Notes: a model not told the origin generated them from the letters alone. DNA of 64,000 bases from Methanotrichaceae archaeon (GCA_963803145.1 CAWDLW010000012.1:1-64000); one strand, 5' to 3'; counted from the stretch's first letter, positions 27,395 to 40,429 are shown. Numbers and translations are program-made.

Positions 27395-28639
27395 TTGCCC
27401 ACAATCAGCCAGAAGATACTTACGCGTGCATCAGGCTCGAAAAAAATGGTTGAGCCGGGGGAGATCATTGAGGCCGGCGTAGATTATGCCATGTCCCACG
27501 ATGGCACCTCCGTGCTCGCCATCAAAGCTTTCAAGGAAATGGGATCGAGAAAGGTATGGGACCCGAAGAGGATCATCATGCCCTTCGATCACATTGTGCC
27601 TGCGAACAATGAAACTGCAGCTACACTTCAAAAGGAAGTACGCACATGGGCACGCGAGCAATGTATAACCAACTTTTTTGATTGCGGCTCGGGCGTATGC
27701 CATCAGGTATTGCCGGAGCAGGGATTCGCGCTTCCTGGGCTATTGGTAATAGGAGCCGATTCTCATTCTTGTACATACGGAGCCTTCGGTGCCTTTGCAA
27801 CTGGCGTCGGTGCAACTGACATGGCAGAGATATACTCTCGCGGAAGACTATGGCTGAAGGTGCCGGAAACAGTGGCAATCAGATTAAAGGGCAAACTCAA
27901 GCCATCTGTCTCTGCCAAGGATATTGCTCTGATGGTTATTGGAGAGCTGGGCGCAGATGGCGCAACCTACAAGGCTGTTGAATATATCGGCAGTACGATT
28001 GAGGATCTGAGCATCTCAGGAAGGATGACGCTCTGCAATTTGGGCGTGGAGATGGGAGCTAAAGCTGCTATAGTTCCTCCCGATGAAAAGACTGATGACT
28101 TTTTGCGAGGGCGTGCAAGAAGCGAGTACAGCCACGTGTATTCTGATCCGGGCTCATATGATGAAGAGATCGAGTACGATGTGAGCGGGCTTGAGCCTCA
28201 GGTGGCAGTGCCATTCCGAGTGGATAACGTCCGTCCTGTAACTGAACTTGAGGGCAAAGAGATCGATCAGGTGTTCATAGGAACCTGCACCAATGGACGG
28301 CTTGAGGATCTCGAAGTCGCAGCGAGGATAATTGGAGATCAGAAGGTAAAGGCCCGAACTTTGATTATACCCGCATCGCGCGAGGTGATGCTCGATGCAC
28401 TTAGTGCAGGCATAATCGAGACCTTTGTTCAAGCCGGAGCCATTATTGCGCCGCCTGGCTGCGGCCCTTGCCTTGGGGCGCATATGGGCGTTCTGGGTGA
28501 GGGAGAGGTATGCCTATCAACATCCAACCGCAACTTCCCAGGCAGGATGGGCAAAGGCGGACTGGTCTATTTGGCATCGCCTGCGACTGCTGCGGCGTCG
28601 GCGGTGAGCGGGTGCATAACGTCGCCTGAGAAAGTTTAA
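27395..28639 (+). CDS. Aconitase-family large subunit (3-isopropylmalate dehydratase/homoaconitase, LeuC/HacA)
   Basis: [39 protein letters not shown] and STSNRNF.GRMG. Confidence 0.92.
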
Positions 28640-29066
28640 GGGTGAGTGCTGAAATCTCGTATATTCCTTGCTTTTCTGAAGGTTATCATCCTTCATAATT
28701 CGCGATAACTACATGATTGATCACAGAGTTTAGTTCATTTGATGTTTAGATTCATTAGTGGCGACAGTGCCGCAGCCTATCTTGCGATTAATTCTATCAC
28801 ATTTTCTAGGCAACCGGAAAAAGCTATAGAACCATTCTCCTGTTGCACGTATCTAGTCTGTCGGTTGACCACACAAAAATATATAAGTTGCATGGATCTT
28901 CAAAATCGGCTTAACTACTCTTCTAGATAATCCCTCATTCCATAAACTGTAAGCACAAATATGCCAGCTCGCGGCATATAGATCAATTATGCCAATGCAT
29001 AGCGAATACTGCAAAATAGAATCTGGAGCGCAAAGGCATACTTAACGTGCTAAGATCGTTATTGAT

Positions 29067-29206
29067 AAAAATGCTATTTTTAAAATCGAAATGGCTTTGT
29101 TTTAAGCCTTCTCTCCTTCGAGAGCATTCGATAGCCTTGACCGCATATACGCCTCTCGTCTCTGGTTCGGGCTGGCCTTGATGTATATTCTTGTAATGGC
29201 AAAGAG
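29067..29206 (-). pseudogene. Orphan 3' end of a paralogous tyrosine recombinase plus its downstream flank
   Basis: Reads ..TRIYIKASPNQRREAYMRSRLSNALEGEKA*, versus TGIYLKASPNHRREAYMRSRLSNVLAREKA* at 30282. It is a direct repeat of ~30247-30385. Confidence 0.85.
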
Positions 29207-29366
29207 GCAAAATTTATTCGTATTTTATATTGTCTTCCAAGAAATTAAACTTCTTCCAGCAAGGTTTTCTTGCAATCCATTTTCATTGAAATGGATAAGC
29301 ATTGCTGGGGTAATGCAAAAAAATTCCCCGATCGGCGAGAAAATTAATTTTTTTGCTTTATCAATC

Positions 29367-30131
29367 CTATTTTAGAGATTTTGCTTTTTTTACATTATCA
29401 TTGCACCACATATCTAATACTTGGCGATTTGTAAGAACCGTGATATTTGCCTGATGGAGATACGCCATCTGCTCCCTAAAACAATCTTTACTTACGCTCC
29501 ATGCGGAGTTAGGTTCGTTATATATATTATGATAAACCAGCACCGCCCACACATTTGGATTTTTTGCCCGATTAACGGTATTTTCAAATTCGTACATTGG
29601 TATTTCATCGGTCACATCAAACGCTCTGATATTATACCTATCAAAGCTATTTCTCATATTGAAAATAAATTCCTGGCAGTCTCCGCGCTGCGATTTGTAA
29701 TATTTTTTTATTTGCTTCATGGATTCGCCTGTGACGCAACCGAACGGACTAGCATACGAAGTCACTGTTGGCCAAGATGCGTTGAGCAAGTCGCGCGATA
29801 AGTTATACTGAATCATAAATTCGTCGAGGGTCAGATCAGCTGGCCTTTTGTGATTGTATCCGTGAGATTCTATATCCCAGCCGTCTTTGTATAGCAATGT
29901 GATCTCGCTAGCATTCATGCGGCCCTCGGCTCCACCGCTGCATTTGGGGTTAGCAATAATGAAAGCTGTTGCCTTAAGGCCATATTGATCCATGATATTC
30001 TTTGCTATCAAGTCGCTTCTGCATCCATCATCAAAATTTATGCTAATGACGGAAATCGCCAAAGGCACGAAAAATATTGCTGCAATGAGACATGGCAGAA
30101 TAACTTGTGAAAATTTTTTCATGATTTTCAC
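29367..30131 (-). CDS. Polysaccharide deacetylase (NodB/CE4), exported
   Basis: SINFDDG, ESHGYNH, SPFG and LVYHNI motifs; N-terminal hydrophobic segment; AT-rich. Confidence 0.85.
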   Translation of the reverse strand: MKIMKKFSQVILPCLIAAIFFVPLAISVISINFDDGCRSDLIAKNIMDQYGLKATAFIIANPKCSGGAEGRMNASEITLLYKDGWDIESHGYNHKRPADLTLDEFMIQYNLSRDLLNASWPTVTSYASPFGCVTGESMKQIKKYYKSQRGDCQEFIFNMRNSFDRYNIRAFDVTDEIPMYEFENTVNRAKNPNVWAVLVYHNIYNEPNSAWSVSKDCFREQMAYLHQANITVLTNRQVLDMWCNDNVKKAKSLK

Positions 30132-30281
30132 CCTCTTTGGCCTTTTGTTTTAAACTTTTTTTTCTTTTTGACGTTAAAATATCGCTATAACTTATTTGTT
30201 GATAAATGTTTTTCCGTCCAGATTGTGGGCATGCAAAAACCTGAAGAAAAATGCTATTTTAAAATCAAAATGGCTCAGTTT

Positions 30282-30893
30282 TCAAGCCTTCTCTCTTGCA
30301 AGGACATTCGATAGCCTTGAACGCATATATGCCTCCCGCCTATGGTTCGGGCTGGCCTTGAGGTATATGCCCGTAGTGGCTAGAGATGCGTGCCCCAGCT
30401 GGTCCTGAAGGTCTCCAACTGGCACTCCGCTATCTAGGCTCCAAATGGCAAAGCTATGCCTGAGCAGATGGGGATGTATCCGATGCCTGTCTTTTCCTGC
30501 CTTATCCTTTCGCTTGACTTCTTGCAGGCCAGCTATAGTAGCAATGTCATCAAGAATATTCTGGACCTGCCTTGATGAGATATGCCCTTCATTGTAGCTC
30601 GAAAACAGCCAGCCTTTAGAACGCCCATTAAGCTGCTTTGCTATGACCTCCGTAACTTGGGGCAGCAGGACCACAGTACGAGGCTTCTTGAACTTGGCAT
30701 TGACAGCTTCAACGTGCAAATATCCCTTATTGAGATCAATATCTTCTGCCTTGATCTGGGTCATCTTGCCTACACGCAGGCCAGCTCCGGCCAGGAGTAA
30801 TAGGATACATCTCTCTCTGTCATCCTTGGCGGCCTTTAATAGAGCGTTGAACTCTGCAAGGGTGAGAAATTTTTCTGGCTCCCTGCTTGCCAG
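30282..30893 (-). CDS. Catalytic-domain-only tyrosine recombinase (Xer-like); canonical start codon missing
   Basis: The frame is open to 30911 (ASREPEKFLTLAEF..GAGLRVGK..AKFKKPR..HPHLLRHSFA..LGHASLATTGIY). All R-K-H-R-H-Y residues are present, but only CTG (30893) precedes the first catalytic Arg. Confidence 0.85.
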   Translation of the reverse strand: MASREPEKFLTLAEFNALLKAAKDDRERCILLLLAGAGLRVGKMTQIKAEDIDLNKGYLHVEAVNAKFKKPRTVVLLPQVTEVIAKQLNGRSKGWLFSSYNEGHISSRQVQNILDDIATIAGLQEVKRKDKAGKDRHRIHPHLLRHSFAIWSLDSGVPVGDLQDQLGHASLATTGIYLKASPNHRREAYMRSRLSNVLAREKA

Positions 30894-30914
30894 GATAGCC
30901 CACGTCCTACATCA

Positions 30915-30944
30915 AATTTCTGATTATGGTACAAATCAGAAATT
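30915..30944. other. dif-like recombination site candidate A
   Basis: AATTTCTGATTA-TGGTAC-AAATCAGAAATT, immediately upstream of the recombinase gene. Confidence 0.6.
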
Positions 30945-31075
30945 ATGATCGATAGCAACAAGCCATTGATCCTTATTGTTGGTTATACAAAAGATCTAAG
31001 TATATAAAGCGTAGCACAAAAAGTAAATTTGACTAAATTATAGTTTCATCGCTATTAGTATGGTAAGAGCTGGGA

Positions 31076-31927
31076 TCAGCCTGTATATCCCAGCTCCTTG
31101 GCCTTGGCGAAGGCTGCATCTGCTTCAATAATACGGTCAAGTTTAATAAGAGCATTGCCTTTGATACTCCACACGCTTGCGTCTTGTGGATCTATCTCGA
31201 TAGCCTTATCCAACACCTTGATGGCATCAATATACTTACCTTGTGAAAAGAGGGCTTCTCCTTTATTGCTAAGGGCTATTGCAAACATAGGATCTATCTC
31301 GATAGCTTTGTCATAGGCTTTGATAGCCTCATCGTACTTGCCTAGTTTATCAAGAGAAACGCCTTTGTTGTTCCAAGCAGATGCATTCTTAGGATCTACC
31401 TCAATGGCTTTGTCATAAGCCTTGATAGCCTCATCAATCTTGCCATGTTGGCCGAGGGCAGCGCCTTTGGTGTACCAGACATATGTGTCTCTTGGAGCTA
31501 GCTCAATGGCCTTATCAAGTGCCAGCATGGCATCATCATATTTACCCTGATTCGCCAAGACCATGCCTTTATTATTCCAAGCCAAGGCAAACTTTGGTCT
31601 TATCTTTATGGCTTCATTGTAAGCTTCAATAGCTTCTTCATACCTTTCCATATTAGCTAAAACTGCACCCTTGCCATTCCAGGCATCGGCATACTTCGGC
31701 TTTAGCTCAATAGCCTTGTCAAAAGTTGCTATGGCGCTTCCAAATTTGTCTAATTCATTAAGGGCAAAACCTTTATTGCACCAAATTTCTGCTGATTGGG
31801 GATTTATTTCGATGGCCTTATCATAGATCTTTAGGGCTTCCTCATATTTAGTGAGAATCGATAGGGCATATGCTTTGTTAATCCATCCCCATTTATTCTT
31901 AGGATTTATCTCAATTAACGTTCTCAT
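31076..31927 (-). CDS. TPR-repeat array (~8 repeats), probably the C-terminal part of the upstream nuclease gene
   Basis: 34-aa repeats AW.NKG..L..LGKYDEAIKAYDKAIEIDP; joins 31911..32981 if one base near 31915-31922 is removed. Confidence 0.88.
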   Translation of the reverse strand: MRTLIEINPKNKWGWINKAYALSILTKYEEALKIYDKAIEINPQSAEIWCNKGFALNELDKFGSAIATFDKAIELKPKYADAWNGKGAVLANMERYEEAIEAYNEAIKIRPKFALAWNNKGMVLANQGKYDDAMLALDKAIELAPRDTYVWYTKGAALGQHGKIDEAIKAYDKAIEVDPKNASAWNNKGVSLDKLGKYDEAIKAYDKAIEIDPMFAIALSNKGEALFSQGKYIDAIKVLDKAIEIDPQDASVWSIKGNALIKLDRIIEADAAFAKAKELGYTG

Positions 31928-32981
31928 AACAAGCTATAGCTTCGTCATAATTCCCTTGGTCAAAGAGTTCATTTCCCTTTTTTAGCCACTTGTAGGCTTC
32001 TCTGGACTTTGTTTTCCTTACTCCTAATTGGGGTGCACCTTTAATACTCTCTTTTTGGTTTGGTTCAAGGGATCTTTGTGGTTTCCTTGAAGACGCAATA
32101 GCGAATCCTAGATCATCGACATTTATATGGCTGATTCTATCAGTTATTCTTAACGCTGACTCGAATTTAGTATCATAGCCTCTACTTATTACAATTCCAA
32201 TAACTGGAACGTCTCCTGCAATTCTATTTTGAACCCATCCCATGTAGTTAGATATCTGTCCAAATGTGTTTTGGCCAGCTCGGACAATTTTCAATTCAAT
32301 TACTACATATCTTTTCTTTGTTCTATCGTAGCAAAGCAAGTCAATGCGGCCACCGTTGCCTTTGCAAATGAGCTGTCTGCCAGATTGTTTTGATGCTGGA
32401 TCGATGTATATTTCTAAATTGTGACCAAAATCTTTTAAATTTTTTAAATTAGTAGCCAATAACTCTTCAAGCTGTTCCTCTATTAATATATCTCTTGAAA
32501 ATGGTTCCTTCTGGATTTGCTCGATAAAATCTTGGTATCCTGGGTTTTTATCTGCTGCTAGTTTATTCAGCTTATCCCAATAATTTTTAGATATTTCAAA
32601 GCTACTGCGCTGAAAACTACATCTAAGTGGGCCCCACTCATCAAAATATGGATCGTTGCGTAGGTCCTTTACATTGAGAGGATGCCCAAATTTATACAAC
32701 ATCTGGTGATCACAGCCGTATTCCCATCCATGCTCGTTGTCATCAGCGATAGAATACGCATCACTTTCTGCTTGAATCAAATAGCCAATATCTTTTTTGG
32801 GCGTAGTACGCCATAAGAGTACTAAGTCACCCTTCTTAGTATCTTTGTGACAGGTCCACCAGCCATCTGAATCTACACCGCTATCTGGATCAAGGTCTTC
32901 TCTGTCATTACCATCTTCATCTAAATAAACATCAGGGCGTGTTACCCATAACCAGTAATGGCGCTCACCAGGTTCTATCAT
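31911..32981 (-). CDS. EVE-like domain plus NucS/DUF91-type PD-(D/E)XK endonuclease (first TPR at end)
   Basis: YWLWVTRP..WWTC..TKKGDLVLLW (EVE/PUA-like); EEQLE..GRIDLL..VVIELK..GQI..YMGWV nuclease core. Confidence 0.8.
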   Translation of the reverse strand: MIEPGERHYWLWVTRPDVYLDEDGNDREDLDPDSGVDSDGWWTCHKDTKKGDLVLLWRTTPKKDIGYLIQAESDAYSIADDNEHGWEYGCDHQMLYKFGHPLNVKDLRNDPYFDEWGPLRCSFQRSSFEISKNYWDKLNKLAADKNPGYQDFIEQIQKEPFSRDILIEEQLEELLATNLKNLKDFGHNLEIYIDPASKQSGRQLICKGNGGRIDLLCYDRTKKRYVVIELKIVRAGQNTFGQISNYMGWVQNRIAGDVPVIGIVISRGYDTKFESALRITDRISHINVDDLGFAIASSRKPQRSLEPNQKESIKGAPQLGVRKTKSREAYKWLKKGNELFDQGNYDEAIACYENVN

Positions 32982-33654
32982 ATCTTACACCCGATTTTGC
33001 AATTGAAGCAATATCATTTCCTACATTTTAACGCTTCTGTCTTTAGCCCCCAAGACTATACCTGTAGGTCAAAAGGCGGAAGTCTTGATTATACTCTTCT
33101 GTAATTACCAGTAATAGAACATAAGATCTAATACGCAAAAGACAAAGTAAGGTCAAGGAAAACTATCTAATAATGTAACCCATTGATTCTTCACCATATG
33201 AATTGGAGACAAGAGATTCGAGAATGGGTGGGAAATCCAGCAATATTATTTTGCATATGTCTAATAATCGGTCCTTTATATGTCCTCGCATCAGTTTATA
33301 GTGTCGATCCTTATGCAGAGTTTAATATTAGTCTCCTTAGGATTATTGCAGGCGCAGGTGGGGGGTGGACTTCTAACGATTACAGTAATCAATGCCGGAT
33401 CAAGAAGACGGTCCAGACGCGCCTATAGGGCAATTATCGGCCGCTTATGTAATTTATCGATAAATATTTATGCTAATTTTAAGTATGGGAAGATTACATT
33501 TAGCGGTGACGATAAAACTATATTTAATTTAGCAAGGGGCGGTTCTGGAAATATTGACGTCAGTAATGATATTGAAAATGTAGCATCTCAATTACATAGT
33601 CAGGCAAGCCGTATGAGTGACGAAGAATATCATAACGTACCATATAAACAAAAA

Positions 33655-33897
33655 ATCAAGAACCCCACCCTAAAGGGTGGGGTATGCTGCGGGCCGCACG
33701 CCGATCGGTTTTCGGGAATCTAGAAATCGTCTAATTTTCGTTGTCTGGATCTCTTGATCCGAATAATCAGATCTTTACTTTCGGTTTCCAAGGATTCCTT
33801 GGTGATCAATCTGAAAAAACATGAAAACCGGGCGAGGGTTCACTTCATCCCCAACCTAAAGGTCGGGGTATTCGTGACCCTCTGCACTCCCAATGTA
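33655..33897 (-). mobile_element. Non-autonomous IS200/IS605-derived miniature element
   Basis: Two subterminal hairpins CCCCACCC-taaa-GGGTGGGG (~33663) and CCCCAACC-taaa-GGTCGGGG (~33848). No credible ORF; TTAT abuts the left end on the minus strand. Confidence 0.75.
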
Positions 33898-34026
33898 ATA
33901 ATTTCGGGACACTACACTCGCACCAGTGAACTAATATATAACAAGCATCAATAGTCTCTGTCTAAAATAGTGCGGCCAAAAGTTACCAGTAAAGCTACTG
34001 GACTTGTCGTTATTGAGGAAGCATAA

Positions 34027-34827
34027 ATGAAGATAGTGCTAATAGTAAGTATTGTCCTGTTAAACATTGTACTACTGAATCCAGCAGTAATTGGCATGCC
34101 TAACCCCTCTTCTGTCTATTGTAGTGAATGTGGAGGTGTAGACAAGTTGGTAACGGACCCAAGTGGCGGAGAGGTGGGTATATGCGTGTTTCCTAATGGC
34201 TCATTTTGCGAAGAATGGGGTTTATACTCCCATAATTGTAGTGCAGGCATGACACCTGCGCCTATTAATTATTCGGCCACGCTGAACCATTTTTCTAAGT
34301 TCTATGACCTGGATTTTATTACCGATAATCAAACAGTAAATAAATCCATTAAAGCTCTCGAAGATACTGATGAAGGGGTTCGATGGAGAGCAGCTTATAT
34401 CCTTGGGTTCCTGGAAGATAAAAGAGCAATTGAACCGCTTATTAGAGCCCTCAAGGATGATAAATGGAGTGTCCGAGAAAGAGCTGCCTGGGGACTTGGA
34501 GAGATTAACGATAGCCGTTCGGTTGAACCTTTAATTCAAGCATTGAATGATAGCGAGCTTCGCGTAAGATATTACGCAATATGGGCTTTAGGAAGATCAA
34601 AAAATACATCAGCAATATATCCACTTATAAATGCAATGGGTGATGATTATTCCATAAAGGATATGGCTGTTAATGCTTTAGCAAGCTTTGGTACTTCCGC
34701 AGTTGAACCCTTGTTGGGAGCCTTAAATAATAGCAATGCCGATATACGGGCAAGTGCTGCGCACGCCTTAGAAGAGATAAAAAGCTCCAAGGTTAGTCGA
34801 ACAGCGGATTCGAACTCTCAGTACTGA
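34027..34827 (+). CDS. Secreted DUF333-like plus HEAT/PBS-lyase repeat protein, degenerate 3' end
   Basis: Signal peptide, MPNPSSVYC..CGG..GICVFPNG..CEEW, repeats VR..AA..LG..D.RAIEPLI.AL. A further repeat (SLGELGDSRAIEP) lies in another frame up to 34921. Confidence 0.8.
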   Translation: MKIVLIVSIVLLNIVLLNPAVIGMPNPSSVYCSECGGVDKLVTDPSGGEVGICVFPNGSFCEEWGLYSHNCSAGMTPAPINYSATLNHFSKFYDLDFITDNQTVNKSIKALEDTDEGVRWRAAYILGFLEDKRAIEPLIRALKDDKWSVRERAAWGLGEINDSRSVEPLIQALNDSELRVRYYAIWALGRSKNTSAIYPLINAMGDDYSIKDMAVNALASFGTSAVEPLLGALNNSNADIRASAAHALEEIKSSKVSRTADSNSQY

Positions 34828-35087
34828 GGATAATTCATATGCATGGAATATTCAGATGGAAGCTACCATGTCTTTAGGGGAACTTGGAGATTCAAGAGCA
34901 ATCGAGCCGAAAGATGCTTGAGTTCCGGCTTGGTCCCGTACTGTTGTGTATACTTTTTGGCAAATTTTCTGGTTCTTTAAGATAGATGGTACGCTCCGAG
35001 AAGGTCAGATTCACATAGTCCTTAGAATAATCAGCCTAACAAACGATGTAAGTGTCTCGTCCCTGCACATAAACCAATAAAGCTTGA

Positions 35088-35117
35088 AATTTCTGATTAT
35101 AATGGAAATCAGAAATT
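35088..35117. other. dif-like recombination site candidate B
   Basis: AATTTCTGATTA-TAATGG-AAATCAGAAATT; both arms are identical to site A, in the same orientation. Confidence 0.6.
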
Positions 35118-35298
35118 GTACACCCAGTATTGAAACTCGGAGGTAGTACGCACTTCGATATCCAAAAAGGGGATAGCATTTAGCCCGACTTAACACCTAC
35201 TTCAGAATCATGGCATTTTTGGCAAATAATTATCGTTTGTTTATAATTACGGATGAATGTCCTTTTATGAGACGACGGTTCATCTTATTCCCTTCAAA

Positions 35299-35413
35299 CT
35301 TACAGCCCGCGCTTCCAGAACCTTCCCCCAGCGAGGGGTAAGGGGCAGCCCGCGCGGCGACTGAGCGCGCTAGGAAAACCATTAGTTTTAGCCCCAGAAG
35401 GAAGTGTAGGCTC
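35299..35413 (+). repeat. GC-rich dispersed repeat, copy 1
   Basis: CCTTCCCC..GGGGTAAGGGGCAGCCCGCGCGGCG..GAGCGCGC core. Confidence 0.8.
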
Positions 35414-35614
35414 TTGAAGTAGAAGCAGTCTCAAATCAAATATTGTTTATAAAGCCGTTTCGATATTCAGAAATCGTTCTTCTTTATGCCTTCAGTTCAG
35501 CATTATCTCGGATTCAGACCAGCCGTTAGCCAGAAGGACAAGTGTAAACTTAACTTTGCTACTGATAGACCTAATTGCTCAGAATCCGTTTCCTCTGAAG
35601 GGTCCATGAACTGT

Positions 35615-35836
35615 TTAAGCAGAAAACCACTCCTCACGAGAGATGCCAGCAACTTTGAGAATCTCTTTGATAAGCTTCACATCTACATCCTCGCCTTGAT
35701 GAGGATTCGGCAGGACGATAACGATGTCTCCTTTAGCCATGTAAGGATGTTTGCGGCCCTGATGCGGGCCCTCAAGTCCCAAACTCTTTAGCTTCTTGAT
35801 TAAGACTCGATATGGAACGGGGACTATTCTAGACAA
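35615..35836 (-). CDS. hicA: HicA family mRNA interferase toxin
   Basis: 73 aa; LIKKLKSLG..QGRKHPYM..VLPNPH..LIKEILKVAGISREEW. Confidence 0.88.
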   Translation of the reverse strand: MSRIVPVPYRVLIKKLKSLGLEGPHQGRKHPYMAKGDIVIVLPNPHQGEDVDVKLIKEILKVAGISREEWFSA

Positions 35837-36080
35837 CGGCCATCGGCTCCTGAGAGACGCCTATCGTGTAACCATCTATAGCTGGTATATTCAGGCCTCT
35901 CTGAAGTCTTATGGTGATCCACTCTTCAATAACCTCAATGAGATCCTCCCGGCACTCTTCGATGGTTTTGCCTGTGGCTATCACGCCCGAAAGGCCTTCT
36001 ACGGTTGCCATAAAAGAGCTGTTCTCAAGAGCGTCATACTTGGCCCGCCTTAAAGCTGCAGCAATATATTCGGCGAACAT
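35829..36080 (-). CDS. hicB: Short HicB family antitoxin
   Basis: 83 aa; FMATVEGLSGVIATGKTIEECREDLIEVIEEW..IP; overlaps hicA. Confidence 0.88.
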   Translation of the reverse strand: MFAEYIAAALRRAKYDALENSSFMATVEGLSGVIATGKTIEECREDLIEVIEEWITIRLQRGLNIPAIDGYTIGVSQEPMAVV

Positions 36081-36122
36081 GAGGGATATTATTCGCAGGC
36101 TGTATTTACAAAGCTTTGCTTT

Positions 36123-36265
36123 CTGAGCAGTTCGTGACAGATATGAAGAGCCCGAGTACGACGTGAGCGAGCTTGAGCCTCTGGCGACATCGCCCTACCG
36201 AGTGGATAACGTACATCCTGTTTCTGATTTCGGAGGGCACAGAGATCGACCAGGTTTTCATGGGA
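36123..36265 (+). pseudogene. Chimeric remnant of aclA (26926-26953) fused to the leuC/hacA-like gene (28161-28282)
   Basis: 27/28-nt match to aclA, then a degenerate match to the aconitase-family gene; the junction is the shared 8-mer ATGAAGAG. Confidence 0.85.
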
Positions 36266-36267
36266 GA

Positions 36268-36347
36268 GAGGGTTAGGGGCAGCCCGCGCGGGCGTTGGAG
36301 TGCGCTAGTATAACCATTAGTATTAGCCCCAGAAGGAAGTGTAGGCT
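36268..36347 (+). repeat. GC-rich dispersed repeat, copy 2
   Basis: GGGTTAGGGGCAGCCCGCGCGGGCG..AACCATTAGT.TTAGCCCCAGAAGGAAGTGTAGGCT, shared with copy 1. Confidence 0.8.
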
Positions 36348-36400
36348 TTAAATTATATTAGCTGGTCCAAATGTGAAGTTGGCGGCTTTGGCAGACTCTT

Positions 36401-36529
36401 GAACTTCGCCTTTTGGCAGTGGGATCGAGTATAACGGCGGGATCGGTATAAATATGAACATATCGTTTGCCGTCTGGAATCCACTCATGAATGCACGATT
36501 GATCTTTGGAGGAACCGAGGATTACTGCT
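36401..36529 (+). repeat. Degenerate duplicate of the upstream region and 5' end of the PHP gene (40912-41040)
   Basis: Shared GTATAACGGCGGGATCG..TATAAATATGAA..CCGTCTGGAA..CCACTCATGAA..TTTGGAGG..GATTACTGCT. Confidence 0.85.
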
Positions 36530-36886: not shown

Positions 36887-39800
36887 TCATTTCAGCCCTT
36901 TGAAATGAATCTCACATTTAGTTCCATTGATTGTATCGAGTCTCATCTTGCCATCAATTTGCTTGACAAGGGTATCTATCAATCTGAACCCTAAAGTCTT
37001 CGAATCTTTGATATTCAGATCTTCCTTGATCCCTGCCCCATTATCACTTACAACGAGCGTAAAGTTATCATCCTCAGAACTAAGATCTATGCAGACCTCA
37101 CCGTTCCTGCCATCCGGAAAGGCATGCTTAAATGAGTTGGAGACCAGCTCATTTATTATCATGCCACAGGGAATAGCTATGTTTATATTCAAATAAACAT
37201 TTTCTGAATTTACTTTAAAGTTGATCTTGCCTGCAAGGTTACCATAAGATTGAGATAAATGGGAGGCCAGCTGCCCTAGATATTCATTGAAGTCAACCTT
37301 GCCGAAATCTTTTGATCTATACAAGTTCTCGTGGACTAAAGCCATGGATTTGATACGGTTCTGGCTATCCCTGAAGATTTTTATGAGGTCCTCATCATCG
37401 AGGCATGATGATTGCAAGGAAAGAAGGGCGGAGATAATCTGCAGGTTATTCTTGACACGATGGTGAACCTCTCTGAGGAGGACTTCCTTCTCTTTTAGAG
37501 ATGCTATGATCTTGTCTTCAGCTTGCTTTCTATCTGTTATGTCCCTAGTTATGCCTACCAAGAACTGATTCCCTGCATGATCGGTATAAGGTGTCTTCTT
37601 GACGAGGACTGTTAGGGTCTTATCTGCGTAGGTGTTTGTCTCCTCGTTTGTAACCTCAATGCCCTTATTGAAAACCACCTCGTCCGTCTTCCAAGAGATC
37701 TCGACCATCTCTCTCGAGGGAAAGAGATCGCTAGCGGTCTTGCCCAGGAGATCCCCTCGAGGGCGACCAAAAAGCCTGCATGCAGCATCATTTACCAGGG
37801 TCATTCTATGCTGTCTATCCTCGACAAATAACGGGTCGCCAATGGAGTTGATTATTTTGTTCAAATAGTCCTTCGATTCTTGCAGATCTTTCTCCATCCT
37901 CTTTTGTTCAGTGATGTCCTTGATGGACTCGATAGCCCCAACTATCTTTCCCTGGATGTCATATATTGGGGAAGCTACACCCCAAAGATAGGCACCAACC
38001 CCTTTCAATTTGGGCGTGAATATATGTCCAACAATGGTGCCATCAGACCGCTTCAAGTCAAAATACCTTTTTTCGATCTCGGACTCGGGTTCGAGCACCA
38101 GGTCTACAAGTATAGGCCTTCTCTCGCCATAGAATGGCAGAGCATACTCATAGTCCTCTTTGCCGAGGATGTCCTGGGCCTTGATCCCAGTCAGCTCTTC
38201 CATGACACGATTCCAAGCAATTACCGTCTTATTGTTATCTATGACTAATGTTGCATCTGGGAGAAACTCAATAATGGCAGCCAGTTTGCTCTCTGAATCT
38301 CGTAGCGCATCCTCAGCTTTCTTGCGTTCAGTGATGTCTTCTCCGGAACTGAGGGTGCCAATAATGCAGCCTTCTTCGTCTTTGATAATCGTTGTATGCC
38401 ACGCTATAGAACGCTCTTCGCCATTTTTGTTGAGAATGTAACCTTCATAGTACTCAAATTGCTCGATTTCGCCGGCGATGATTTTCCTGTTAACCTCGTG
38501 AACTGCCTCATGGTCTTGGGGTCGCAGGCAAGTCTTGATCCAGTCCCTGCCTGTAAGCTCGCCCTCTTCGTACCCAAGAACCAGATAGCCTTTCCGGTTG
38601 AGCAGCGTTATTCGTGCCTCGGCGTCAAGTGCGACAAGGATGACTTCGACGGTATTCAGGTATTGCTCTGCCCTGTCCTTCTCTGCCTCGAGAGCTTCCT
38701 CAGCTCGCTTGCGTTCGGTGAAATCTGTGAAAGTACCTTCTATTTCCAACACTCTCCCCATCTCGTCTTTTACTAGATGGGAATTTGCAAGAACGACTAT
38801 CTTTTCATTGCTGAATGTCTTCGCATTTATCAGGTAGTTGCTGATGAATCCCTTGGACATCAACTCGTTCAGATATTTAATTCTCTCATCAGGATTCTGC
38901 CAGAAGTCCGGTAACTTTGCTCCTTTCATATCCTTGGAGATATCAATGCTTAAGATCTGGTTGAATGCCGGATTGTGGTCAAGTAACAGCCCATCTGGGG
39001 TGACTCTGTAATATCCTTCATCCAGGTGTGCTACAGTTTCACGGAACTTGCTCTCGCTTTCCTGTAATGCCACTTTTGCACGCCTGCTCTCGGTGATATC
39101 TCGCCCATAGATGTTAACGTAATCCAACTCTGGGATTGGAACTATGTCTAACGAAAAGAGTCTGCCGCCAGATACAACTTCGATTTTGTTGAGCTTTCCA
39201 GAACCGAGTGACTCCAGGACGAGATTTTTAAAATCTTCCGGCAATCTTTGACCCACTTGACAGCCCCATAACTCCAGCAGCGGAGCACTGCAGCAATTTG
39301 AATAGGCGATGGTGCCGTCTGCTGTTATTCTCAAAACTGGATTGGGGTTTTCGTCTGGAAATCTTGCCAGGCTTTCTATCTCTTTCATGGCCTGCTTGCG
39401 TTCGGAAATGTCTCGCCATATGGCCAGGATAGCCTTTTTGCCTTCATACTCGATCAGATGAGCGTGAACCTCTGCGGGCAGGAGCCTTCCATCCTTCGTC
39501 TTGTTAACAGATTCAAAAATGCCAAACCCTTTATGTAAAATTTCATCAATTCTACATTTTACCTTAAGAGCGCTCTCCGGACAATCGATGTCTTCAGGAG
39601 TCAATCCGAGCAGTTCATCCTTTGAATATCCGAGGCGCATGACAGTTTGATCATTGACTTCCAGAAAATGACCTTCAAAATCATGTATCACAATGGCATC
39701 TGCTGCGCTGTTGAACAGTGTTCGGTACCTCTCTTCGCTCTTCTGCAACGCCTCCTTTGCCTTCTTGCGCTCAGTGATATCGATAACCGCCATCTTAAAG

Positions 39801-40429
39801 CCCCGGCAGATATCCCCTCGCATTGGCTGAGCCTCTAATAACACCCAACGATGGACTTCCCTGTTCTTTATGGTGTAATTCAGCTCGAACTCGGCTGCAT
39901 GCCTTTTGCCCGACTCCAAAACACGGCTGCAAAAGGAATTGAACTCCAGGATACAGTTCTTGTCTAAGTATGCCTGGAATCGGTTGTTCACCAGGTGCAC
40001 TCTTTCCGTTCCCAGGAGAGATTCGCTGGTAAGATTTGCCTCTAGGATCTTACCGGAACCATCCAGGGTCAAATAGCCGATAGGTGCAAACTCATAGAGA
40101 TCCTGATACTTACTCTTGGATACCGAAAGTTCTGCCTGCACCCGCCGAAGCTCCTCATTCTGCATCTCCAGCTCTATCTGGTGGACCTGCAGCGAATGCA
40201 TCATGGTCAGGGCATCAGTGCTCCCCTCCGCAGACTCAATGTATTCTTCGTTTTTGCGCTTGAGCATCTTCTCTGCAACCAATAGATTCTCAAGGCTGTA
40301 GTGCAGACTCTCCAGGGCATCCGATAGAATTTCGGGCGCTTTTGCTGGCTCACTTATAAATTCTGCCTGGATGCTCTCTAAACGATGAGAGAGCACGGAA
40401 ATCCTTTGGGAAAGGTCATCAGCAGTCAT
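36887..40429 (-). CDS. Cytoplasmic multi-PAS sensor histidine kinase (HisKA_2 type)
   Basis: About seven PAS/PAC units ending DITERK; H-box LLREVHHRVKNNLQII; NELVSNSFKHAF; DNGAG. Confidence 0.93.
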   Translation of the reverse strand: MTADDLSQRISVLSHRLESIQAEFISEPAKAPEILSDALESLHYSLENLLVAEKMLKRKNEEYIESAEGSTDALTMMHSLQVHQIELEMQNEELRRVQAELSVSKSKYQDLYEFAPIGYLTLDGSGKILEANLTSESLLGTERVHLVNNRFQAYLDKNCILEFNSFCSRVLESGKRHAAEFELNYTIKNREVHRWVLLEAQPMRGDICRGFKMAVIDITERKKAKEALQKSEERYRTLFNSAADAIVIHDFEGHFLEVNDQTVMRLGYSKDELLGLTPEDIDCPESALKVKCRIDEILHKGFGIFESVNKTKDGRLLPAEVHAHLIEYEGKKAILAIWRDISERKQAMKEIESLARFPDENPNPVLRITADGTIAYSNCCSAPLLELWGCQVGQRLPEDFKNLVLESLGSGKLNKIEVVSGGRLFSLDIVPIPELDYVNIYGRDITESRRAKVALQESESKFRETVAHLDEGYYRVTPDGLLLDHNPAFNQILSIDISKDMKGAKLPDFWQNPDERIKYLNELMSKGFISNYLINAKTFSNEKIVVLANSHLVKDEMGRVLEIEGTFTDFTERKRAEEALEAEKDRAEQYLNTVEVILVALDAEARITLLNRKGYLVLGYEEGELTGRDWIKTCLRPQDHEAVHEVNRKIIAGEIEQFEYYEGYILNKNGEERSIAWHTTIIKDEEGCIIGTLSSGEDITERKKAEDALRDSESKLAAIIEFLPDATLVIDNNKTVIAWNRVMEELTGIKAQDILGKEDYEYALPFYGERRPILVDLVLEPESEIEKRYFDLKRSDGTIVGHIFTPKLKGVGAYLWGVASPIYDIQGKIVGAIESIKDITEQKRMEKDLQESKDYLNKIINSIGDPLFVEDRQHRMTLVNDAACRLFGRPRGDLLGKTASDLFPSREMVEISWKTDEVVFNKGIEVTNEETNTYADKTLTVLVKKTPYTDHAGNQFLVGITRDITDRKQAEDKIIASLKEKEVLLREVHHRVKNNLQIISALLSLQSSCLDDEDLIKIFRDSQNRIKSMALVHENLYRSKDFGKVDFNEYLGQLASHLSQSYGNLAGKINFKVNSENVYLNINIAIPCGMIINELVSNSFKHAFPDGRNGEVCIDLSSEDDNFTLVVSDNGAGIKEDLNIKDSKTLGFRLIDTLVKQIDGKMRLDTINGTKCEIHFKGLK

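Follow-up and report, generated by a model that had tools for sequence, protein, structure and literature searches.

A 64,000-nucleotide (nt) stretch of genomic DNA from a Methanotrichaceae archaeon (GCA_963803145.1 CAWDLW010000012.1:1-64000), here referred to as the window, harbors two palindromes with identical arms, one of them directly upstream of a small tyrosine recombinase gene. This arrangement raises the question of whether the palindromes are recombination sites of that enzyme and whether the DNA between them forms a cassette. We hold with moderate confidence that both palindromes are cognate sites of XerA-like, one-domain recombinases of ~200 amino acids (aa), at which dif-like crossover, exchange of gene modules and probably autoregulation would take place. 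In the following, G000 denotes the genome of the window and G019 and G004 denote congeners.

The two sites and the recombinase of the window

The arm pattern AATTTCTGATT-N8-AATCAGAAATT was found exactly twice in the window and in direct orientation (site 1, AATTTCTGATTATGGTACAAATCAGAAATT; site 2, AATTTCTGATTATAATGGAAATCAGAAATT; coordinates in Table 1), with 24 of 24 arm bases identical. Shuffling the window 100 times with dinucleotides preserved gave no chance match with up to three mismatches. On the minus strand, the direction of the recombinase gene, site 1 is AATTTCTGATT-T-GTACC-AT-AATCAGAAATT and site 2 is AATTTCTGATT-T-CCATT-AT-AATCAGAAATT; a conserved ATAAT extension on the recombinase-proximal side gives both the same polarity. 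The sites have the anatomy of a dif-type core, described either as perfect arms of 11 base pairs (bp) with an 8-bp gap or as 12 + 6 + 12. The arms are conserved over 6 of 16 genera, and the central 5 nt are hypervariable.

An open reading frame (ORF) of 209 codons from stop to stop begins right after site 1 on the minus strand. It matches the Pfam family Phage_integrase (PF00589) with 105.8 bits (cut-off, 27.1 bits) over profile positions 1-171 of 172, that is, over the whole catalytic domain; an N-terminal domain is absent, and nothing else matched. Intact orthologues start with MRAILASMEPEKF ~10 nt after the site. In the window copy, the two start methionine codons read ACG and AGG instead of ATG, and the gene is therefore without a start; this copy is inactive at its start codon, with the catalytic residues intact. 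The initial annotation had described two such sites with 24 identical arm bases in the same orientation, an Xer/dif architecture of inverted ~11-bp arms around a short center, an adjoining catalytic-domain-only recombinase of ~203 aa and the apparent loss of its start codon, and all of these descriptions agree with our results.

An alignment of 24 sequences, the window copy among them, shows no variation in the catalytic R-K-H-R-H/W pentad and the tyrosine nucleophile (R44, K71, H146, R149, H172, and Y181), and the mini recombinases look active as a family, judging from their sequences. A database search at E ≤ 0.001 returned 835 proteins, of which the best 120 are 192-209 aa long, 82-100% identical, and derived from Methanothrix/Methanotrichaceae metagenome-assembled genomes (MAGs) and from metagenomes; no relative of at least 364 aa was found. 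The best curated model is that of archaeal XerA (NCBIfam NF040815), which was matched only at positions 92/94-263 of 263 and with scores (window copy, 125.3 bits; orthologue L029, 134.8 bits) below its cut-off of 220. Likewise, the closest solved structures, XerA of Pyrococcus abyssi (4A8E; phmmer E value, 1.6e-22) and 5HXY from Thermoplasma, were matched in the catalytic domain only. We take the fold of the mini recombinase as settled because its sequence matches these solved XerA structures; their two-domain architecture, a core-binding plus a catalytic domain, is not that of the mini recombinase. Five two-domain Xer-like genes, matching XerA-model positions 2-263, are present elsewhere in G000. 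Because of these ordinary genes and the tight size range, the mini form is a distinct one-domain protein and not a truncated annotation.

An SSV-type (suicidal) integrase, whose attachment (att) site lies within the int ORF so that the gene is divided into int(N) and int(C) upon integration, was considered because the ORF reaches the site and because solo C-terminal recombinase fragments exist (L051-L055, with varying start residues). This candidate was discarded: the site lies upstream of the start codon, with the methionine of the orthologues after the site, stop codons occur across the site in the frame of the gene, and longer forms were not found.

Palindromes differ between recombinase subfamilies

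In the genome contigs, 15 loci with the protein were found, eight of which keep the 5' region of the gene. The site stands upstream of the gene in six of these eight, 9-10 nt before the start and, in one gapped case, 46 nt before it; the two loci without a site are rearranged at their 5' ends. Furthermore, a metagenome set of 80 loci with 83 sites was retrieved by the site pattern, and 36 of these sites adjoin the gene, the other 47 being solitary. The sites therefore recur beside homologous recombinase genes, a linkage that the initial annotation had proposed to look for. Between genera, homology around the gene extends only from ~25 nt before the site (the GCTATCGATCAT flank) to ~70-180 nt after the stop codon, and the genes around the mini recombinase differ in every genome examined.

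A protein search of the 61 genomes of the family identified 28 mini-recombinase loci in 20 genomes, with identities of 36-100%. We searched these loci for perfect palindromes with arms of at least 8 bp and a gap of 2-12 that end no more than 30 nt from the projected start. Such a palindrome is present in 16 of the 28 loci, compared to 87 of 3,000 random 132-nt windows. Inspection by eye added imperfect palindromes in at least six further loci and showed no clear palindrome at the start in five (L168, L169, L172, L173, and L176); L167 is cut by the contig end. The arm sequences differ between subfamilies (AATTTCTGATT, ATGTCATAA, ATGTCTCTTTT, ACTTCCGA, TTCGTAATT, and a further one with 16-bp arms), and within subfamilies the arms change symmetrically, as in L164 (ATGTCGTA...TACGACAT) and L180 (TGTCCCTTTT...AAAAGGGACA). 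Since each subfamily has a different palindrome at the same place and the changes in the arms are symmetric, we read the palindrome as the own site of the enzyme. These subfamily-specific palindromes are the strongest evidence that the palindrome would belong to the enzyme.

G000 itself also encodes an intact mini-recombinase paralogue of 193 aa (C18:42323-42931) that is 36% identical to that of the window. Its palindrome, ATGTCTCTTTT-N7-AAAAGAGACAT (C18:42903-42931), is followed by a TTATATAG box and then by 34 nt to the ATG. All four exact copies of this third palindrome in the genome contigs adjoin a gene of the matching subfamily. Another 380 bp upstream of the C18 palindrome is a canonical subfamily-1 site of opposite polarity. 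Apart from the archaeal loci, a 512-kilobase (kb) contig of a MAG labeled Candidatus Eisenbacteria (L185) carries at its start a subfamily-3 site together with a mini-recombinase gene that is frameshifted and shares 80-83% identity with its archaeal counterpart; this represents either a transfer between domains or a chimeric assembly or bin.

Solitary sites and homology breaks

Sites were detected in 13 of the 61 genomes, belonging to 6 of 16 genera, with many different centers. In G000, 18 sites were found at ≤2 mismatches and 25 at ≤4, of which those on C4 and C20 look like chance; 19 of the 25 have a center within two substitutions of that of site 2 (CCATT), and about 20 copies are solitary. 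Several solitary sites in the metagenomes retain the upstream flank and the 10-nt leader tgaagtaggATG and are then followed by other genes, such as a TPR gene (L089, L066) or a HEAT gene (L129). A second flank with a site follows 800 bp on in L089, past the TPR gene, and another at ~+1.15 kb in L117. In total, seven pairs of neighboring sites were found, with unlike centers in every pair; in the four that could be oriented, the sites are direct (4/4) and never inverted (0/4). Arrays were seen with two sites only, and the HEAT gene of the window reads towards its site, not away from it. The layout in G019 is that of the window (CCATT site, cargo, gene-linked site, gene), with an unrelated cargo of 1.9 kb.

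Comparison of related loci revealed that homology breaks at the site, on either side. L080 and L081 have only the site and its right flank in common (-5 to +118), L080 and L100 only the left flank and the site (-54 to +30), and L117 and L135 only the left side. Between L084 or L069 and L089, 320-370 nt are common on the left, up to +49 (L084, -371 to +49), and nothing beyond. Similarly, C17 of G000 and C86 of G004 have 1 kb in common, ending 6 nt past the site, after which C17 has 13.4 kb and C86 1.25 kb of different DNA until synteny resumes; the G019 locus is empty. The site on C18 is located ~360 bp inside a 6.9-kb insertion that is absent from both congeners, and that on C23 ~730 bp inside DNA without synteny. 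All three canonical sites tested thus lie 0.36-0.73 kb inside the edges of DNA that the congeners lack. In the region of the window, contigs of a 97.6%-identical strain track the sequence from 28500 to 30957, i.e., 13 nt past site 1, and then diverge; contigs with the HEAT gene end in or at site 2, and another sample differs right after 35117. The recurrence of sites at synteny breakpoints with variable cargo, a second point on which the initial annotation had asked for evidence, is hence observed. No second site or half-site was found at the far ends of the C17 and C18 islands. A comparison of upstream DNA with the sequence that follows the recombinase stop codon gave no convincing att-type repeats.

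Proposed mechanism and its weak points

From these observations, we infer that the palindrome is bound and recombined by its enzyme, with one monomer on each 11-12-bp arm and with cleavage and strand exchange across the 6-bp variable center, as at dif or loxP. Bound at the gene-linked copy, 9-10 nt before the start codon, the recombinase would probably throttle its own expression. Solitary copies would act as seams at which gene modules, including those for secreted TPR and HEAT proteins and other accessory genes, are joined or exchanged between genomes, and unlike centers in direct-repeat neighbors should stop excision of the intervening DNA; the initial annotation had likewise proposed that unequal centers fix the cargo, which is reasonable. 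In the window, where the recombinase is dead at its start codon, the 4.1 kb between the sites would now be a fixed part of a 7.9-kb strain-specific island.

Several points weigh against this proposal. A direct recombination event was not observed in any of the data, and among the 15 joints listed for the contigs of four sequencing runs (Logan contigs, which drop rare forms), none connects site 1 to site 2 (30944 to 35088), which is weak evidence. The enzyme would have to hold a 12-bp arm without a core-binding domain. Subfamily 3 has a single site per genome and so demands no recombination partner. In L089 and L083, the right flanks are 90% alike and the centers differ (CTAAC versus TAGGT), which is not predicted by clean exchange inside a matched center. 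The breaks lie within ~20 nt of a 60-bp conserved junction and could equally stem from homologous recombination. Moreover, the metagenome loci were retrieved with exact arms, so that arm conservation in this set holds by construction, and some loci within the counts are near-duplicates from related samples. Finally, the fixed distance to the start codons and the nearby TATA-like boxes fit an operator as well. Judged by eye against the archaeal TATA consensus, such boxes lie ~45-65 nt upstream in subfamilies 1 and 2; in subfamilies 3 and 4, they come immediately after the site.

A wider reading is possible, and we offer it tentatively: Methanotrichaceae may possess previously undescribed, self-contained systems in which several one-domain Xer-like recombinases of ~200 aa each co-evolve with a palindrome of 28-38 bp, and subfamily 1 would have expanded into a chromosomal module-shuffling platform with the 5-6-nt centers as address codes. 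Such a platform would be akin to integrons and pdif modules in function and distinct in mechanism, and it would assemble and swap TPR/HEAT surface-protein genes and other cargo. If this is true, the co-evolving pairs would be the smallest natural Cre/lox-like systems.

Alternative explanations

An unlikely alternative is that the palindrome is an operator only, a regulatory site near the promoter whose binding by the mini recombinase, in the role of a repressor, or by some other dimeric protein controls the recombinase gene and a set of TPR/HEAT genes; the reshuffled flanks would then result from duplication of promoter modules and ordinary homologous recombination. This would explain why the site is fixed 9-10 nt before the ATG of recombinase and TPR genes alike, with the tgaagtaggATG leader in common, why a TTATATAG-type box directly follows the site in subfamilies 3 and 4, with ~26-34 nt from there to the ATG, and why one site per genome suffices in subfamily 3; the AT-rich center of the subfamily-1 site fits as well. 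However, a pure repressor would not need the catalytic residues that are invariant over the family, and in G000 the majority of solitary sites are not followed by a start codon. The genes near these sites are diverse (TPR, hydrolases, VWA, IS630, and unknowns) and form no conserved set, so that the operator of a conserved regulon, the outcome named in the initial annotation as speaking against a recombination site, was not what we found. The position of sites at island edges and homology breaks, together with a center that is hypervariable as in recombination sites, also argues for the recombination site over the operator.

We give a lower probability still to a transposon end, in which the recombinase would be a tyrosine transposase, the site the end or junction of an element and not a fixed chromosomal crossover site, and the solitary copies with their adjacent repeats (an A or B module on one side and the 45-bp flank on the other) derivatives, not autonomous themselves, of a small mobile element. 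The conserved unit around the gene spans only ~0.85 kb, starting ~25 nt ahead of the site and ending ~70 nt past the stop codon, and does occur in unrelated contexts and in different genera, and gene copies are often decayed. Copies with a CCATT center have also multiplied in one genus (~19 in G000, five of the eight listed sites in G019, and one of two in G004) and carry adjacent repeats in common. On the other hand, neither a second end nor a target duplication nor a circle junction was found, the site-adjacent repeats come in several combinations, with copies away from sites as well, and the islands reach many kilobases past the site with unrelated cargo. Furthermore, C17 of G000 and C86 of G004 differ only in the cargo beyond the site, whereas the site and the adjacent repeat stay.

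A multimer-resolution module like xerS-difSL or xerH-difH, acting on dimers of the chromosome or of an integrated plasmid and leaving the solitary copies as relics, is very improbable: the gene beside a dif-like site, as for XerS/difSL (PMC2731167, in part), XerA as the closest family, and the one site per genome of subfamily 3 are in its favor, but the distribution is patchy (a homologue in 20 of 61 genomes), decay is frequent, including the window copy, one genome can hold several subfamilies, subfamily-1 sites are many per genome, and G000 has the five two-domain Xer-like genes elsewhere.

Comparison with known systems

Cognate sites of a one-domain recombinase, the explanation we prefer, share features with several described systems. 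Archaeal XerA is the closest sequence family and has the same catalytic residues, and the site is built like dif, which consists of inverted arms of ~11 bp around a short center; in Thermococcales, dif is single and does not lie beside xerA (PMC2958812, in part). In contrast, the mini enzyme lacks the whole N-terminal core-binding domain, and its site adjoins the gene and is present in multiple copies. Linkage of gene and site is known from XerS and difSL (PMC2731167, in part). In XerS-difSL and XerH-difH, this linkage is alike and the module, as here, appears to move as a unit. XerS and XerH are full-length two-domain enzymes with one site per chromosome, whereas the mini enzyme is half as large and the sites of subfamily 1 number in the tens in a genome.

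The invertases FimB and FimE resemble the mini recombinase in having ~200 aa and a catalytic domain only, and their NCBIfam models align end to end (positions 8-177 of 200), although with 52.9 bits against a cut-off of 221. At fim, inverted repeats enclose a promoter segment that can be flipped, whereas none of the four orientable neighbor pairs is inverted here. Cre/loxP is alike in that a single enzyme acts on a simple palindromic site beside its gene, whose asymmetric center sets the polarity. Cre is a two-domain protein of 343 aa, and the arms of loxP measure 13 bp and its center 8 bp; there is no specific relation to Cre in sequence.

A pdif-like or integron-like cassette system had been suggested for the locus in the initial annotation, and although the outcome is similar, the system lacks the defining features of both. 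As in pdif modules, Xer-type sites, conserved in the arms and variable in the center, delimit the gene modules here. However, pdif modules of Acinetobacter plasmids use the host XerC/XerD, are located on plasmids, and have flanking sites in opposite orientation, while the sites described here are chromosomal, direct, and accompanied by an enzyme of their own. With integrons, the system has in common a recombinase gene beside a primary site, what may be same-direction arrays of modules between recombination sites, and clusters of sites without an enzyme (integron criteria, including those for archaeal integrons, as in PMC9668308, in part). Integron-integrase models matched in fragments only and far below their cut-offs (TIGR02249, 74.2 versus 265; NF011946, 56.1 versus 435), so that no IntI-type enzyme is present. 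Also, attC sites are imperfect, variable, and folded as single strands, in contrast to 30-bp duplex palindromes with invariant arms; the sites do not fit the attC description, and an Rfam scan found nothing, with no attC covariance search run. As far as such comparisons reach, the system is neither an integron nor a pdif module nor XerA proper; it appears closest to XerA by sequence and to FimB/FimE by architecture and falls below the cut-off of both models.

A literature search for the family, the site, or a paper joining Methanothrix and a tyrosine recombinase yielded general work on Xer, integrons, and archaeal integrases only. The available portions of a 2021 review (PMC8371274) and of PMC8138268 mention no such family, although supplements may list these proteins. 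If the enzyme recombines the palindrome, it would be a one-domain recombinase of 200 residues, ~60% of the 343 residues of Cre, with a simple 30-bp site, and it would offer a handle on how a tyrosine recombinase can function when it has no core-binding clamp. Evolution would then already have supplied several orthogonal enzyme/site pairs, which would be attractive for genome engineering. The system would also explain in concrete terms how accessory islands became mosaic in Methanothrix-type methanogens, key organisms of anaerobic digesters and wetlands, and it would be a second, non-integron route for the exchange of gene modules in Archaea.

The island of the window and its cargo

Both sites of the window lie inside a strain-specific island (Table 1), pieces of which have matches dispersed over G019. 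Between the sites lies what had been reported for this DNA, namely, the EVE/PD-(D/E)XK/TPR gene in two overlapping frames, which is probably one frameshifted gene, the short repeat, and the DUF333-HEAT protein. A locus elsewhere in G019 matches the TPR part with 93% identity. In G019, the TPR part directly adjoins the upstream region, the EVE-nuclease part being absent.

The initial annotation had further regarded this DNA as a cargo module bracketed by the two sites, and this view stands only in part. The sites do flank accessory DNA, and the variable stretch of the related strain starts at site 1. However, both sites are located within the larger island of 7.9 kb, no excision joint was seen, and the HEAT gene and site 2 are retained on a separate contig in the related strain. 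Moreover, the centers of the two sites differ at four of the five variable positions. The 4.1 kb is not a discrete unit, and site 2 is one of ~19 near-identical copies with a CCATT center. One listed joint, from 35138 back by 4254 to 30885, most likely reflects a single site-bearing contig that fits both sites, and no support is drawn from it; each of the contig sets X1-X3 has one record that fits two places. Positions 31210-33648 are without contig cover in X1-X3, which is not evidence of absence; the contigs of the related strain do not cover the EVE/PD-(D/E)XK/TPR gene, which is weak evidence.

Table 1. Sites, genes, and repeats of the window in order of position
Feature	Coordinates	Strand	Remarks
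Strain-specific island with both sites	28658-36528		~1 kb of other DNA in congener; G019:C2 synteny ends at ~28657 and resumes at ~36529
Duplicate (85%) of the recombinase 3' end (final ~100 nt of the gene and ~40 nt beyond it)	29068-29205	-	Pairs with 30248-30385
Polysaccharide deacetylase gene between the two recombinase 3'-end copies	29367-30131	-	88% match elsewhere in G019
XerA-like tyrosine recombinase, catalytic domain only, catalytic residues intact, both start codons lost	30282-30911	-	PF00589
Site 1, gene-linked 30-bp palindrome, arms of 11-12 bp, center T-GTACC-AT	30915-30944		Position kept in orthologous loci
Conserved flank GCTATCGATCAT (gene direction) just upstream of site 1	30945-30965	-	Homology with orthologous loci and related strain ends here
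EVE/PD-(D/E)XK nuclease/TPR gene, cargo; two ORFs (31911-32981 and 31076-31927) overlapping by 17 nt	31076-32981	-	
Short multi-copy repeat with inverted GC-rich ends, like a miniature inverted-repeat transposable element	33649-33901		Many matches in G019 and G004
Secreted DUF333 plus HEAT-repeat protein, cargo	34027-34827	+	
Weakly conserved flank of canonical sites, TCAAGCTTTATT... (read away from site)	35040-35087	-	No start codon
Site 2, solitary canonical copy, center T-CCATT-AT	35088-35117		Polarity as site 1

The weakly conserved flank next to site 2 may be a degenerate counterpart of the tgaagtaggATG leader, a resemblance that is suggestive only. An alignment of this 45-bp canonical flank as a homologue of the recombinase 5' end was unconvincing, and the idea was dropped.

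The distal copy of the recombinase 3' end keeps the native downstream sequence, and an independent case of 3'-end duplication is found in G003 (L047, 6983-7060); the 3' end of the recombinase gene may be a second insertion hot spot. No transfer RNA (tRNA) gene was detected between 26000 and 42000, and the island is therefore not tRNA-targeted.

Repeats and neighboring genes

Short repeats are abundant in the island. In all four runs, the repeat at 33649-33901 stands out by a very high summed depth and numerous contig breaks; it occurs in several internal deletion variants of ~120-137 bp. A second, GC-rich repeat of 140-430 bp starts with the hairpin GGCAGGTAGTCAACTAACCTGCC and is found at C16:49013-49532 and ~16 other places in G000, and at 35278-35419 of the window; it adjoins a site in five to six copies and occurs away from sites too, and its core of ~140 bp has dozens of copies in G019 and G004. 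An Rfam scan of the window and eight loci revealed no family at the gathering score, so that neither the palindrome nor the GC-rich repeat beside it is a known RNA. For the site-adjacent repeats, group II intron or IS200-type ends were also considered, with nothing found in their support.

An aconitase-family large-subunit gene borders the left edge of the island. Close to the right edge, 36143-36265 is an 81% copy, 122 bp long, of the interior of that gene (28161-28282) and may be a relic of a duplication at island formation. The island also contains a pair of a HicA toxin and a UPF0150 (HicB-like) antitoxin (35615-36080, minus strand) that is 92% identical to a G019 locus elsewhere. Beyond the island, 36887-40429 (minus strand) encodes a multi-PAS histidine kinase of 1180 aa, of which only the two ends have syntenic counterparts in G019, where ~290 bp stand in place of ~4 kb.

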